Source: Candidatus Nanohaloarchaea archaeon
Lineage (GTDB): Archaea; Nanohalarchaeota; Nanosalinia; Nanosalinales; Nanosalinaceae
Assembly: GCA_042218325.1 (NCBI GenBank)
Contig: JBDGRE010000023.1
Location: 1-57,283, forward strand
Reading direction: 5' to 3'
DNA length: 57,283 nucleotides
The notes beneath the pieces are model-generated. The model saw nothing but the letters and a program-made list of their open reading frames with translations, had not been told where the DNA came from and did not search any database. Shown here one piece after another: positions 21,860-39,711 of the stretch; position 1 is the first letter of the stretch, and each line of letters begins with the position of its first letter. The position numbers were made by a program, and so were the translations under genes.

Positions 21860-22363
21860 ATGAAGGCTCCAATCTGTAACGTCTGCCTAAAGAGCGACCA
21901 GCTGTGCAAGCAGTGCCAGGAGAAGCTCGATGAAGAACAGATAACGGAAAAAGAGATAGAAGTCTCAAGGATACTGCACGACCTCAGCACCGAGTACGGC
22001 TCGCTGAAGGACTCCTCGATAGAGGGCGTCCACGACGCCGAGAAAGTCGTCGTGGTTATAACAGCGGAGGGCGACGGCGCAAAGGTCGTCGGCCGCAACG
22101 GCGAGATAGTGAAAGAGCTCGCGGACCGTATCGACAAATCCATCCGCGTGGTCGAGGCCGCAGAGGACGACATGGAGGTCATCAAGGGCCTACTGTCTCC
22201 TGCGGAAGTGAAGTCGGTCAACACCGTGTTCATGCCCGACGGCGAGTACAAGAAGATCGTCGTCGACGAGGATTACGAGGGCAAAATCAACCTCAGCGAG
22301 GATGAGTTCGAGGCCATAGTCGAGCGGATAACCGGCACGGAGTACAAGCTGGCGTTCGAGTAA
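21860..22363 (+). CDS. NusA-like KH-domain protein with N-terminal Zn finger
   Basis: PICNVCLKSDQLCKQC plus KH motif VVGRNGEIVKEL. Confidence 0.85.
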   Translation: MKAPICNVCLKSDQLCKQCQEKLDEEQITEKEIEVSRILHDLSTEYGSLKDSSIEGVHDAEKVVVVITAEGDGAKVVGRNGEIVKELADRIDKSIRVVEAAEDDMEVIKGLLSPAEVKSVNTVFMPDGEYKKIVVDEDYEGKINLSEDEFEAIVERITGTEYKLAFE

Positions 22364-22407: not shown

Positions 22408-24195
22408 ATGCCCACAGAAAAACAGAAGAAGTTCATCGTCGTGGTCGACCAGGACAAGATAGAACCCGATCTGGCGAGGGAGACGGTCATCAACTACGAC
22501 CCTTTGAACAGAGCGGGTAAGGAGGGTGGCTTCTACATCAACGAGGAGGAAGAGCTCCATATAGACGAGGAGGACGTGATGGAGGCCCACCGGATGGCCA
22601 TCAAGAAGTACCCGTACGAGGATGCAATCAAGCTGGTGCAGCTGCCGCACGAGGAAGGAGAGAAGGTACATCAGTTCTCCGAGAACTCGTTCAGACTTTA
22701 CGGCCTGCCGGAGCCCGAGGAAGGAGCCGTCGTCGGCATACTCGGCGAGAACGGAACAGGTAAATCCACGGCGCTGGAGATACTCGCCGGACGCATAAAG
22801 CCGAACCTGGGCCGGTACGAAGACCCGCCAGAGTGGGAAGAACTGAAGCGGGAGTACCGCGGAACCGGGCTGCAGGAGCACTTCAGGAAGCTGGCCGCTG
22901 GAGAAATCGAGGCGGCGTTCAAGCCGCAGAAGGTCGAGCAGATACCGGAGGCGTACTCGGGCAAAGTGGAGGAGCTGCTGGAAGAGGCGCAAGAACGTCT
23001 CTCCGTCGAAGAAATCGCGGAGCGGCTCGACATCGACCAGCTGCTGAACCGCGAACTTGAACAGCTATCAGGCGGGGAGCTGCAGCGCGTCGCCATCGCG
23101 TCGACCCTGCTGAAAGACCGTGATATCTACATGATAGACGAGCCGTCTTCGTTCCTTGATGTCAAGCAGCGTTTGAGCGTGGCCCGGGAGATAAGGAAGC
23201 TTGCGAGCGATAGATCAGTCATGGTGGTCGAACACGACCTCGCCACGCTGGACCTTGTCGCGGACCGCATACACATCTTCTACGGCGACCCGGGCAGCTA
23301 CGGCATGGTGTCGAACTCTCTCAGCTCGAAGAACGGCATCAACCGGTACCTGGAGGGCATGCTGCCGTCCCACAACCTGCGTTTCCGCGACGAATCCATC
23401 GAGTTCGACCGGACCAAGTGGTCGCAGGTGGAGAACAAGGCCACGGTTTTCAGCTACCCGGGGTTCGAGAAGGACTTCGGCGAGGGAGAGTTCTCGCTGG
23501 AAACCGCGGAGGGAGATCTCCACGAGGAGGAGATACTGGCGATATTCGGGGAGAACGGGCTCGGAAAGACCGTGTTCGCGAAGATGCTCGCAGGCGCCAT
23601 AGAACCCGACTCGGAGGATTCCCCCGATATCGACATATCCTACAAGCCGCAGTACATCGAGGCGGAAGACGAGACTGTCGAGCAGGCCCTGGAAAAGCAT
23701 ACAAATCCGAGAGGGCAGCGTTTCAAAACTCGTATCGCCGAGCCCCTGAACCTTACCGGCCTCTACGAGCACGAACTCGAGGAGCTGTCTGGCGGAGAGC
23801 TGCAGCGAGTCGCGGTGGCGATAGCTCTCGCCCGTGACGCAGATATCTACCTGCTCGACGAACCCAGCGCGTACCTCGATGTAGAGGGCCGTGTCGACCT
23901 GGGGAAGACCCTGAAGAGGTTCGCGCGGAAGACGGAGAAGCCGCTGATGGTCATCGACCACGACCTGCTGCTGCTCGACTACATCGCAGACCGCGGCTCA
24001 GTGTTCACCGGTGAGCCCGGCGTCCATGGTAAGAGCTCTTCACACGAACGTATCGAGACCGCTATGAACTCGTTCCTCAGGGAGGTAGACATCAGCTACC
24101 GGAAAGACCCGGAGACCGGGCGACCGCGGGCGAACAAGCCCGAAAGCCAGAAAGACCGCGAGCAACGCAAGAAGGGCGAGTACTATGAGCAGTGA
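22408..24195 (+). CDS. rli: Ribosome recycling ATPase ABCE1/RLI
   Basis: FRLYGLP, two NBDs (GENGTGKST, GENGLGKT, LSGGELQR x2), RKDPETGRPRANK hinge; N-terminal domain has no Cys. Confidence 0.95.
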   Translation: MPTEKQKKFIVVVDQDKIEPDLARETVINYDPLNRAGKEGGFYINEEEELHIDEEDVMEAHRMAIKKYPYEDAIKLVQLPHEEGEKVHQFSENSFRLYGLPEPEEGAVVGILGENGTGKSTALEILAGRIKPNLGRYEDPPEWEELKREYRGTGLQEHFRKLAAGEIEAAFKPQKVEQIPEAYSGKVEELLEEAQERLSVEEIAERLDIDQLLNRELEQLSGGELQRVAIASTLLKDRDIYMIDEPSSFLDVKQRLSVAREIRKLASDRSVMVVEHDLATLDLVADRIHIFYGDPGSYGMVSNSLSSKNGINRYLEGMLPSHNLRFRDESIEFDRTKWSQVENKATVFSYPGFEKDFGEGEFSLETAEGDLHEEEILAIFGENGLGKTVFAKMLAGAIEPDSEDSPDIDISYKPQYIEAEDETVEQALEKHTNPRGQRFKTRIAEPLNLTGLYEHELEELSGGELQRVAVAIALARDADIYLLDEPSAYLDVEGRVDLGKTLKRFARKTEKPLMVIDHDLLLLDYIADRGSVFTGEPGVHGKSSSHERIETAMNSFLREVDISYRKDPETGRPRANKPESQKDREQRKKGEYYEQ

Positions 24196-24586
24196 AGAGC
24201 ACACCGGAAAAGTCGCGGCGACCGTCATCCCGAGAACCGGGGAAGGTGAGGAGTACCTCGTGACCTGGCGGGTCGACCACGATATGTGGGAGTTCCCCGG
24301 CGGGAAGCAGAAAAAGGGAGAGACGCTGCTGGAGACCGCGGAGCGCGAGATAGACGAGGAACTCGAGCTCGACATCGACGCGGTAGAAGCAGCAGAGGAC
24401 CACTCATGGGAAGCCGGTGGCCACGAGATAGTGCCCGTGCTCGCCGACCACAGCTACGAAGATATCGAGAGCCACTTAGAGCTCAGGGAGGAAAAACACG
24501 GCAAATACCGCTACATAGAACCGGAGAACTACAGCATAGAGCTCGGGGATGAGAAACGCTGCCTGGAGGCGTTCGACCTGTCATGA
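24185..24586 (+). CDS. NUDIX hydrolase
   Basis: WEFPGGKQKKGETLLETAEREIDEE Nudix box. Confidence 0.88.
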   Translation: MSSEEHTGKVAATVIPRTGEGEEYLVTWRVDHDMWEFPGGKQKKGETLLETAEREIDEELELDIDAVEAAEDHSWEAGGHEIVPVLADHSYEDIESHLELREEKHGKYRYIEPENYSIELGDEKRCLEAFDLS

Positions 24587-24963
24587 ACGAGATACCGGTC
24601 GCCAAGATAATCGCAAGAAACGAAAAAGGCGAATTACTCGCTGTGAAGGAAAAGGAATCCGAGAAGTGGGAGCTGCCCGGCGGCAAGATAGAGCAGGGCG
24701 AGGACCGTTTCGAGGCCGCGTCCCGGGAACTCGAAGAGGAGACAGGCATCGAGCTGGACGCGGACGATTTCCAGGATGTCGTCCGGGTCGAGGTGGAAGA
24801 CTGGGAAATCGTGAACTGCCGAATCCTCTTTGCGGAGGTTCCCGGGGCAGTAGTGGACCTGTACGAAGAAGAGCTCTCCGGCTTCCGGTGGGTGACTGCG
24901 GAGGAGTACAGGACGATGAACTGGCACGCCGACGCGGGCTACGGCGCCCCGGCGATGGTCTAA
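24583..24963 (+). CDS. NUDIX hydrolase (possibly truncated by a premature TAA)
   Basis: WELPGGKIEQGEDRFEAASRELEEETG; frame continues LEEYLKD* to 24987. Confidence 0.85.
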   Translation: MNEIPVAKIIARNEKGELLAVKEKESEKWELPGGKIEQGEDRFEAASRELEEETGIELDADDFQDVVRVEVEDWEIVNCRILFAEVPGAVVDLYEEELSGFRWVTAEEYRTMNWHADAGYGAPAMV

Positions 24964-24983: not shown

Positions 24984-25721
24984 CTAGTCCTCCAGGACGA
25001 ACTCAAGCCGCTCGGTGTCCGCTCCCTTTTTCGTCTGTTCCACGATGTCTATCCTGCCAATCTCTTCCAGGCTGTCGACGTGTGTTCCGCCGCAGGGGCA
25101 GATGTCCTCGTCGCGGATGATGACGACGCGCAGCGGATCGATGTGGTCGGGTATCAGGTCCATGTTGCTGCGGCCTTCCTCGACCTCCATCTCGAGCCGC
25201 TCGCGGGACATGTTCTTCTTGACGACCTCGTGGTTCCCCTCTATCATCGCGTTGGCGGCCTTCTCTATCTTTTCGATGTCGCTGTCGTCGAACTCGGCCG
25301 GCTCGAAGTCGATGCGGGAACGGTCCTCGTATATCTGGTTACCTGCAGTGGTAGCATCGTACATGTCCAGCACCACTTTTGAGAGGACGTGCTGCGCGGT
25401 ATGCATCCTCATGTGACTGTACCTGCGCTCCCAGTCTATCTCGCCGTGCACTTCCATGTCGGCCTCTGGGGTGTCGCCCTTCAGGTAGTGTCTTACTTCT
25501 CCGCTTTTCTTCTGTACGTCCACGACCTCGGCCTCCTCACCGTTCCAAGAAAGCTTACCGTGGCCCGCGGGCTGGCCACCGCCCTCCGGGTAGAACAGCG
25601 TCTCCTCCAGAACGATATACCCGTCGGAATCCGGGTCGTCCGGGGTCATCTTTGCTTTCTTGACTGTGGAATCGAACTCTTTCTGGTAGTCGTTGTCCGG
25701 CCGGAACAGCAGCTCTGTCAT
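24984..25721 (-). CDS. alaX: Alanyl-tRNA editing protein AlaX (AlaX-M type)
   Basis: TLFYPEGGGQP, MRMHTAQH, CGGTHV zinc motifs. Confidence 0.92.
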   Translation of the reverse strand: MTELLFRPDNDYQKEFDSTVKKAKMTPDDPDSDGYIVLEETLFYPEGGGQPAGHGKLSWNGEEAEVVDVQKKSGEVRHYLKGDTPEADMEVHGEIDWERRYSHMRMHTAQHVLSKVVLDMYDATTAGNQIYEDRSRIDFEPAEFDDSDIEKIEKAANAMIEGNHEVVKKNMSRERLEMEVEEGRSNMDLIPDHIDPLRVVIIRDEDICPCGGTHVDSLEEIGRIDIVEQTKKGADTERLEFVLED

Positions 25722-38478: not shown

Positions 38479-39711
38479 ATGACAAAGGAAACCGAGACGA
38501 TGTCGAAGTACCAGCTGAAGAAGCTGATCAAGAAGCTGGAGGACATCCGGGGAAGGAACACCGAGCTGGTCTCGCTGTACATACCGGCGGGCTACGACAT
38601 GTCGAAGATATCCGACTTCGTGACATCGGAGGCCAGCGAGGCGGAGAACATCAAGTCGAAACATACGCGGAAGAACGTCCAGGCCGCACTCGACAAGATA
38701 GGCCGCAAAGTCAAAGAGGAACAGGAGACACCAGAGAACGGTGTAGCGTTCTTCGCCGGCAACGTCTCCGAAAGAGAGGGAAGGCCCGACGTAAAGGTGT
38801 GGGAGGTCGTGCCTCCGCAGCCAATCGAGTCACGACACTACCGGTGCGACAAGGAGTTCGTGCTGGAGCCGCTCCGGGAGATGGTAGTATCCGACAAGGT
38901 CTACGCGCTGATAGCGCTCGACAAGAACGAGGCCGCCATCGGCTACCTGCATGGCTCCTCGATAAAGACGGAGTACACAATGAGCTCCGAGGTACCAGGC
39001 AAAACGAGAGCAGGAGGCCAGTCCGCGCAGCGCTTCGCCCGCATCAGGAAGGAGATGCTGAAGAACTTCATGCAGGAGATAGCTGAGAACTCGAAGAAGG
39101 CGTTCCTCGACAAGGCGAGGGATGACAAGCTGCTCGGCATCCTTGTGGGAGGCCCCGGCTGGGTGAAGGAGAAGTTCCTCGACAACCACCTCCACCAGGA
39201 GCTCCAGGAGAAAGTAGTCGCGACCGAGGACCTGAACTACTCGGGAGAAGAGGCGCTGGAAGAACTGGTAAGTAAAGCTGAGGACGCGATACAGGACGCC
39301 GAGGTGGTGCACGAGAAGAACCTGGTCAACGAGTTCTTCGACAACCTGCGGGAGGAGAACGGCAAGAGCGAGTACGGCCTTGAACAGGTGAAGAAGGCGC
39401 TGGAGATGGGCGCGGTCGACACCCTCTTGATAACGGAGGACGTGGACCTGTTCGCCGCGAAGTACCGTTGCGAGAACGGCCACGAGGATACCGTCTTCGA
39501 GAGGCGGCCGGAGATAGACGACACCCATAAATGCCCGGAATGCGGGGAGGAGATGGAGCTCGAGGAGATATCAGATATCGTCGACGAGTTCGGGAAGAAG
39601 GCGGAGGGGATGGACTCCGACCTGGAGATAATCTCCACCGACCACGAGGAAGGCCGACGACTGGACAACCTGGGAGGCGTCGCGGCCATCATGCGGTACC
39701 GGATACGGTAA
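38479..39711 (+). CDS. prf1: Peptide chain release factor aRF1
   Basis: NIKS, YRCD, GGQSAQRF. Confidence 0.97.
   Translation: MTKETETMSKYQLKKLIKKLEDIRGRNTELVSLYIPAGYDMSKISDFVTSEASEAENIKSKHTRKNVQAALDKIGRKVKEEQETPENGVAFFAGNVSEREGRPDVKVWEVVPPQPIESRHYRCDKEFVLEPLREMVVSDKVYALIALDKNEAAIGYLHGSSIKTEYTMSSEVPGKTRAGGQSAQRFARIRKEMLKNFMQEIAENSKKAFLDKARDDKLLGILVGGPGWVKEKFLDNHLHQELQEKVVATEDLNYSGEEALEELVSKAEDAIQDAEVVHEKNLVNEFFDNLREENGKSEYGLEQVKKALEMGAVDTLLITEDVDLFAAKYRCENGHEDTVFERRPEIDDTHKCPECGEEMELEEISDIVDEFGKKAEGMDSDLEIISTDHEEGRRLDNLGGVAAIMRYRIR

Follow-up and report, generated by a model that had tools for sequence, protein, structure and literature searches.

ABCE1 (Rli1), the textbook case of an essential Fe-S protein in translation, as represented by the structures 3bk7 and 6tmf_d and by the yeast and mammalian proteins, combines twin nucleotide-binding domains (NBDs) and a hinge with an N-terminal domain of ∼80 residues, in which eight Cys ligands serve two [4Fe-4S] clusters. 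Passages of two reviews term the eight Cys and both clusters conserved and essential (PMC6088178, PMC8153317), and the iron-sulfur (FeS) domain is needed for splitting, as a passage of PMC3442406 summarizes from Barthelme 2011. The gene considered here lies in a stretch of 57,283 nt from a Candidatus Nanohaloarchaea archaeon (assembly GCA_042218325.1, contig JBDGRE010000023.1), the whole of which is referred to as the window, and comprises an open frame of 595 codons on the forward strand (22408..24195, including the stop codon). The predicted protein has the same twin NBDs, hinge, position of the N-terminal domain and P-x-N-R motif, and all eight Cys ligands are replaced; the translation contains no Cys anywhere, so that a Cys-ligated cluster cannot be bound.

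Engineered forms of ABCE1 without the FeS domain (1yqt, 3ozx) are truncations that delete the domain, whereas the window protein keeps the domain and only the clusters would be gone. The clusters of yeast Rli1 are described in part of PMC3442406 as the primary frailty under oxidative stress, and the Rli1 C58A variant, which is cluster-poor, as viable. C58A is oxidant-sensitive; the natural Cys-free variant, by comparison, would have nothing to oxidize. ABC-F factors (EttA, ARE-ABCF) are also soluble twin-NBD ribosome ATPases without Fe-S clusters and give weak NBD sequence and fold matches, but they belong to another subfamily, have neither an N-terminal ferredoxin-like domain nor the ABCE1 hinge, and fall far below the score of the RLI model. 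Among the matches listed in full-text literature, none described an ABCE1 that naturally has one cluster or none, a scope that leaves most subscription journals, and supplements, outside.

The translation matches the RLI equivalog NF009945 (NCBIfam) at 710.3 bits, the cut-off being 469, with residues 10-594 falling on model positions 4-589. Full-length ABCE1 chains from the PDB match at E values from 3e-162 to 9e-132, and the P. abyssi protein (3bk7, E 3e-162) is colinear with residues 7-593. The NBD1 core (residues 104-247, 22717..23148), delimited by the best Pfam ABC_tran stretch, carries Walker A GENGTGKS, the signature LSGGELQR and Walker B IDEPSS, and NBD2, whose approximate limits (residues 365-530, 23500..23997) come from a second ABC_tran stretch and the 3bk7 alignment, carries GENGLGKT, LSGGELQR and LDEPSA, both on the forward strand. 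Together with the H-switch motifs VEHDL (NBD1) and IDHDL (NBD2) in the translation, both ATPase sites look intact. The hinge-2/C-terminal tail on the same strand (residues 562-595, 24091..24192), GRPRANK...QKDREQRKKGEYY, aligns residue for residue with 3bk7 and 3j15, has the form GRPRANK...KDREQ..GEYY typical of ABCE1 and shows a mean pairwise identity of 0.77 within the window's family (f1); this stretch of ABCE1 binds the small subunit, according to a part of PMC7196836. The Pfam matches listed for the protein (25 of 28 families, E ≤ 1) are to ABC and P-loop families, with neither a Fer4 nor an RLI domain among them. The genome that contains the window (G000; 1.07 Mb, 35 contigs, 96% complete), the closest named relatives of which are Candidatus Nanohaloarchaea, Nanohalobium and Nanosalina, has one ABCE1 gene. 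A second, Cys-containing copy, a possibility raised in the original prediction made from the letters of this DNA, was looked for in the genome and not found, the next match reaching 92.9 bits with a single NBD. Judged from its sequence, the window protein is an ABCE1 ortholog by descent and presumably not an Fe-S protein, a variant rather than a canonical member.

The eight ligand positions can be followed in an alignment with S. solfataricus ABCE1 (6tmf_d). The remnant of the first motif, C-x4-C-x3-C-x3-C, is found at 22459..22500 (forward strand), where C11, C16, C20 and C24 align with I18, A23, V27 and D31, the last followed by Pro, and that of the second motif, C-x2-C-x2-C-x3-C, at 22579..22611 (forward strand), where C51, C54, C57 and C61 align with M58, H61, A64 and Y68, again followed by Pro; 0 of the 8 positions is Cys. 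The original prediction had called the protein ABCE1/RLI, had quoted an N-terminus lacking every canonical Cys and had held that the canonical register was kept. The profile score and the colinear PDB match agree with the first of these statements, the translation matches the quoted sequence, and the register is indeed kept in the 6tmf_d alignment apart from one-residue indels. Proteins without Cys are not rare in this genome (16 of 128 crude open reading frames (ORFs) of at least 500 aa; Cys makes up 0.86% of residues), and the unusual feature is the loss of Cys at eight ligand positions, not a Cys-free protein as such.

The equivalent of the FeS domain, residues 1-85 (22408..22662, forward strand), is recognized as homologous because of its position in the colinear full-length match, a chain through an intermediate and direct matches to canonical domains. 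Taken alone, the N-terminal domain finds ABCE1 among PDB sequences only weakly (E 0.059 and 0.082). With the database size set to 1e6 for the blastp E-values, it matches four of six canonical domains directly (27-36% identity, E 4e-9 to 0.04), the remaining two giving no match at E ≤ 10. The intermediate is the domain of a relative, G035, described below, which is 45% identical to that of the window protein (E 6e-21) and 38-45% identical to canonical domains (E 5e-15 to 6e-21).

ABCE1 was detected at E ≤ 1e-60 in 53 of 70 genomes of the phylum and its N-terminal domain could be read in 51, G047 and G060 being excluded because the 5′ end is missing at contig edges. No ligand position is Cys in 43 of the 44 readable genomes of family f1, within which one Cys in G030 lies outside the ligand positions and the copy of G051 is cut ahead of the first position; the exception, G035, retains Cys at five of them (1-3, 7 and 8). 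Eight single-contig genomes of the family have exactly one ABCE1 match each. Family f5 is Cys-free in 6 of 6 genomes, with the replacements V, V, A, D / M, H, I, I. Family f2 consists of a single genome, G001, the only one in the phylum with a canonical 8-Cys ABCE1; the GC content of this locus (L046:1498-3222) is 0.32, whereas four further ABCE1 loci of nanohaloarchaea for which it was measured lie at 0.53-0.58. When residues 1-95 were compared with 5.8 billion proteins, 120 of 120 among the matches listed were Cys-free in the domain, including those of Ca. Nanohalobium constans, Ca. Nanohalococcus occultus and Ca. Nanosalina VS9-1, and none of these 120 has a Fer4 or RLI domain on record. 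A profile of the Cys-free domain run against 1.84 billion cluster representatives gave 20 proteins at E ≤ 1e-3; leaving out the three weakest, long proteins of 1,180-2,202 residues, the 17 matches shorter than 1,000 residues are 12 of f1/f5 type (mostly fragments), four one-cluster proteins and P0122, which has a single Cys. The Cys-free ABCE1 is a clade-wide state.

Outside the phylum, the 30 Halobacteria loci read all retain the ligand Cys, as do the archaeal outgroups that were read. The canonical ABCE1 proteins of Halobacteria (L109-L138, 30 of 30) contain two additional residues within the second motif, C-LGE[TS]-C-GI-C-x3-C, and a ninth Cys in the loop past the P-x-N-R stretch. The low-GC haloarchaeon G075 (2.7 Mb) encodes a second, f5-like Cys-free ABCE1 plus a canonical copy (L127). 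The Cys-free gene (L139:4355-6142, corresponding to G075:C1:2456354-2458141, plus strand) lies on a 2.66-Mb contig and forms a long branch inside the nanohaloarchaeal-type clade. Its locus has a GC content of 0.465, vs. 0.463 at the canonical locus, and its neighbors are ordinary, namely an MCM N-terminal fragment, a short-chain dehydrogenase/reductase and glutamate dehydrogenase.

The Cys-free domain is more conserved than the NBDs. In family f1 (40 sequences) the mean pairwise identity is 0.771 over residues 8-80, vs. 0.657 and 0.681 in the NBD regions, and in family f5 (5 sequences) it is 0.875, vs. 0.716 and 0.692; to judge from these values, the domain is under strong purifying selection. 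D31, P32, L33, N34, R35, M58 and H61 are among the residues invariant in 45 of 45 Cys-free sequences, and H51 and E59 are conserved in at least 90% of them. The stretch P32-L33-N34-R35 (22501..22512, forward strand) is the equivalent of a contact site, as P32 and R35 correspond to S. solfataricus P25 and R28, which touch uS12 in the 30S post-splitting complex (PMC7196836, in the part describing these contacts), and the P-x-N-R motif is thus retained.

The full-length AlphaFold2 (AF2) model, the input alignment of which held Cys-free sequences only, has a mean predicted local distance difference test score (pLDDT) of 88.6, with residues 11-70 at 83-92. It superposes on 30S-bound archaeal ABCE1 (6tmf_d) over residues 8-594 (573 residues, root-mean-square deviation (rmsd) 3.3 Å, Z 45); structural alignments of this model mainly span the NBDs, and only some of the chains (6tmf_d, 6zvj_1 and others) are aligned from residue 5-8 on. 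A model of the domain by itself has strands at residues 8-13, 50-53 and 74-78 and helices at 20-30, 32-35 and 59-66, a β-α-β-like arrangement. Foldseek places ABCE1 FeS domains first for this model (probability 0.97-0.99, TM-score ∼0.5) and ferredoxins next, the best match being 6tmf_d (probability 0.99, TM-score 0.51, E 0.016). The ferredoxin-like fold anticipated in the original prediction is therefore supported but not proven by modeling: the full-length model and the identity of the top Foldseek matches speak for it, and the domain-only match is weak.

A one-cluster pattern, C-C-C-D / x-H-(S,C,P)-C, in which Cys1-3 and Cys8 are kept, Cys4-6 are lost and Cys7 is present in some copies, was found in G035 and in four Halorutilales-type genomes, which are small and belong to Halobacteriales (G070, G081, G082, G098). 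A pattern search yielded 43 of 43 confirmed loci, comprising 34 from non-halophilic DPANN archaea, eight of Halorutilales type and one from a nanohaloarchaeon whose N-terminal domain sequence is identical to that of G035. The 34 non-halophilic loci (L144-L172, L174-L178) come from metagenome-assembled genomes labeled Woesearchaeota, Nanoarchaeia and similar; they include L146, from a genome flagged as unpublished, and the statement stands without it. Asp occupies the Cys4 position and His the Cys6 position in 43 of 43 one-cluster loci, and single copies were found in each of five one-cluster DPANN genomes checked, whereas other Woesearchaeota (L040-L042) have canonical ligand Cys. The one-cluster proteins from Halorutilales, G035 and Woesearchaeota-like DPANN share with the window protein, besides these Asp and His residues, the motifs DP(L/I)NR...GF(H/Y) and V(M/T)ExH, and their N-terminal domains are 45-48% identical to its own, but Cys1-3 and Cys8 are kept. 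We take Cys4-7 to serve one cluster and Cys1-3 with Cys8 the other, in the usual ferredoxin topology, an assignment that reportedly goes back to work of Barthelme in 2007 and of Karcher in 2008. To judge from their ligands, the one-cluster forms can hold one Cys-ligated cluster at most.

Gene trees were inferred from NBD and hinge columns only (IQ-TREE quick search, LG+C20 with posterior mean site frequencies (PMSF), branch support by the SH-like approximate likelihood ratio test, SH-aLRT). All nanohaloarchaeal ABCE1 genes and the Halorutilales-type copies form one clade (SH-aLRT 97-99), in which the Halorutilales-type copies are sister to family f1 (97-98) and not to other Halobacteria, f5 is separate (84-97) and the window gene nests among those of f1. 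The DPANN one-cluster copies cluster with canonical Woesearchaeota ABCE1 on the NBD tree, and their Asp/His signature may reflect either common origin or parallel change. A single origin of the Cys-free state was considered and rejected by the approximately unbiased (AU) test, which excludes all Cys-free sequences as one clade (p 5.7e-8); one clade of the Cys-free f1 sequences is not rejected (p 0.29). The simplest history would start from an ancestor with one cluster, which was then lost independently two or more times, and this history agrees with the hydrophobic replacements that differ between f1 and f5 and with the shared D31, M58 and H61. The one-cluster form is the only ABCE1 of the Halorutilales-type carriers (L025 986-2755, L027, L140, L142; L179-L186), which include Halorutilus salinus F3-133 and a complete 1.9-Mb chromosome. 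This distribution suggests that an essential translation gene may have moved between symbiont and host lineages, in either direction.

The original prediction tied the absence of Cys to lost Fe-S biogenesis and asked for Cys loss to be compared with the presence of SUF genes. The proposed link does not hold. One locus of the window's genome contains the genes for SufB (464 aa) and SufD (362 aa), together with those for a class-V cysteine desulfurase (440 bits) and, adjacent, an ABC ATPase, and since the machinery is still present, loss of Fe-S assembly is not the driver. SUFBD_core is present in 47 of 49 f1 genomes and 6 of 8 f5 genomes, and no match to it was found in G001 (93% complete), which has the canonical 8-Cys ABCE1, so that the trend is if anything reversed, on the strength of one genome. 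A general purge of Fe-S proteins as the cause was also ruled out, as two Fe-S clients, Elp3 (C207/C211/C214) and a helicase of XPD-like type (four N-terminal Cys), keep their Cys, as do SufB and SufS. The Fe-S proteome looks small, with the ferredoxin motif CxxCxxCxxxCP occurring 0 times among the 1061 crude ORFs of the genome. In the SUF locus (G000:C32:13000-25000, L088) a zinc-type alcohol dehydrogenase gene lies between SufB and SufD, and the gene for the XPD-like helicase is located just upstream.

A sister family, f4 (G003-G012), is apparently an archaeal family without ABCE1, the gene being detected in 0 of 10 genomes that are 80-93% complete and represent five genera. The best f4 matches, each with a single NBD, reach 94 bits with the family model (five genomes tried) and 53 bits with the G001 protein (all ten). 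Proteins with the eRF1_3 domain (aRF1/Pelota) are present in 9 of 10 of these genomes and radical S-adenosylmethionine enzymes in 9 of 10, with up to 19 matches in one; strong SUFBD_core matches occur in G007 only. Bacterial ribosome recycling factor was considered as a replacement for ABCE1, and PF01765 was found in 0 of 10 genomes.

Taken together, it is highly probable that the window protein is the organism's single, working ABCE1 recycling ATPase, the N-terminal domain of which has turned into an Fe-S-free structural module. A one-cluster form (C-C-C-D / x-H-x-C) would have come first, and the last cluster would then have been lost independently in at least two nanohaloarchaeal families. 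In the Cys-free domain the site of the Cys4-7 cluster would be occupied by the invariant D31, M58 and H61, possibly with an Asp-His pair, and the site of Cys1-3 and Cys8 would be packed with small hydrophobic and aromatic side chains (I, A, V, Y in f1; V, V, A, I in f5), such that the ferredoxin-like fold may hold without metal clusters. The Fe-S-free domain would then still act as a wedge or lever, driven between the ribosomal subunits as the NBDs close and parked at h44/uS12. As to the driver, it may be speculated that, in oxic brines, an essential translation factor was relieved of clusters sensitive to oxidants or of a demand for iron.

A number of points weigh against this reading. Both the absence of metal and the splitting activity are predicted from sequence and models, and several rRNA contacts of the S. 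solfataricus protein are changed (R2 to F9, K15 to L22, N17 to R24, E19 to T26, N70 to Q78; contacts as listed in part of PMC7196836). The domain-only AF2 model is mediocre (mean pLDDT 76.8, predicted TM-score 0.60), 0 of its Foldseek matches reach E ≤ 1e-3 and their rmsd is ∼5 Å; furthermore, solved ABCE1 structures were part of the AF2 training set, so that the model may reproduce a known fold rather than infer it, and the alignment was shallow (45 related sequences). Which site lost which cluster depends on the assignment of Cys to clusters given above. The trees are quick ones with SH-aLRT support only and contain sequences of odd letter make-up (L027 and L046 in all three, plus L040 or L187), and the Cys-free group tested by AU was chosen after the tree had been inspected. 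Finally, G075 has both copies, so recycling may not in every case fall to a Cys-free ABCE1 alone.

Among the other explanations is the binding of a different metal: a mononuclear Zn, Fe or Mn site, or another non-Cys site, could be built from D31, H61 and M58, with H51 and E59, as a structural staple. Asp, Met and His sit at the former Cys4, Cys5 and Cys6 and are invariant throughout the Cys-free set, with H51 and E59 nearly so, and Asp and His are fixed throughout the one-cluster loci. However, an Asp-His hydrogen bond accounts for the same conservation, conserved acidic residues are unspecific in a very acidic proteome (D+E ∼17%), and the other cluster site, I, A, V and Y, is incapable of metal binding, all of which leaves such a site unlikely. 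That the domain is instead a decaying vestige, the NBDs and hinge being sufficient (for example as an anti-association factor) and FeS-driven splitting having been lost, would fit the failure of Pfam to recognize it, the altered rRNA-contact residues and the related family f4, which apparently manages without ABCE1. A vestige would drift or be deleted, however, and this domain is the best-conserved part of the protein in f1 and f5, has kept its length, register and uS12-contact motif, and is modeled with confidence in the full-length structure; the vestige is therefore very improbable.

Abandonment of ribosome recycling for a new function finds some encouragement in G075, where a Cys-free copy on a long branch stands beside a canonical one, as expected for a paralog with a new role. 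In nanohaloarchaea the gene is the sole ABCE1, aRF1 and Pelota homologues are present (two eRF1_3 matches in the window's genome, one of them inside the window), the hinge, helix-loop-helix region and ATPase motifs align with canonical ABCE1 and the score is well over the equivalog cut-off, so that a change of function appears very improbable. An assembly or annotation artefact, or a pseudogene, might be suspected of a gene taken from a metagenome-assembled genome in 35 contigs, yet the frame is open and the same state is seen in all of the 120 listed database proteins, which come from several sources, and in single-contig genomes; four DNA runs of one study contain 45-100% of the sampled words of the stretch, and one of them may be the source sample, whereas an RNA run was not among the runs listed. 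Because independent genomes show the same state, this explanation can be set aside with near certainty, and a working recycling ATPase with an Fe-S-free N-terminal module is preferred.

The gene is preceded in the window by that of a Cys-rich NusA-like KH-domain protein (21860-22363). Downstream of it are two tandem NUDIX hydrolase genes (24185-24963), which overlap the ABCE1 stop region, and a gene for an AlaX-like tRNA-editing protein on the minus strand (24984-25721). The eRF1_3-domain match inside the window (39307-39705) is located in a 422-aa open frame 15 kb downstream of ABCE1.

The occurrence of a clade-wide cluster-free ABCE1 in organisms that assemble Fe-S clusters argues that the clusters are structural and replaceable and may not be mechanistically required, and the one-cluster intermediates would reveal which of the two clusters is the first to be lost. 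Co-cultures exist for three of the carriers (Ca. Nanohalobium constans, Ca. Nanohalococcus occultus and Ca. Nanosalina VS9-1) and Halorutilus salinus is an isolate strain, so that the purpose of the ABCE1 clusters is directly testable. The shared Asp/His signature may mark a rare change of use in the disputed placement of Nanohaloarchaeota and in tracing symbiont-host gene transfer. A bolder generalization, possible rather than probable at present, is that the Nanohaloarchaeota form a series in which archaeal recycling would need no Fe-S clusters nor, in f4, ABCE1 itself, passing from two clusters (G001) through one (G035, a state also found in Halorutilales and many Woesearchaeota-like DPANN) to none (twice independently), with an Asp-His(-Met) staple and a hydrophobic mini-core replacing the cubanes. 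If this is true, the textbook view that ABCE1 is universal and depends obligately on Fe-S clusters would be wrong on both points, and the cluster-free domain would be a template for an oxidation-proof ABCE1.

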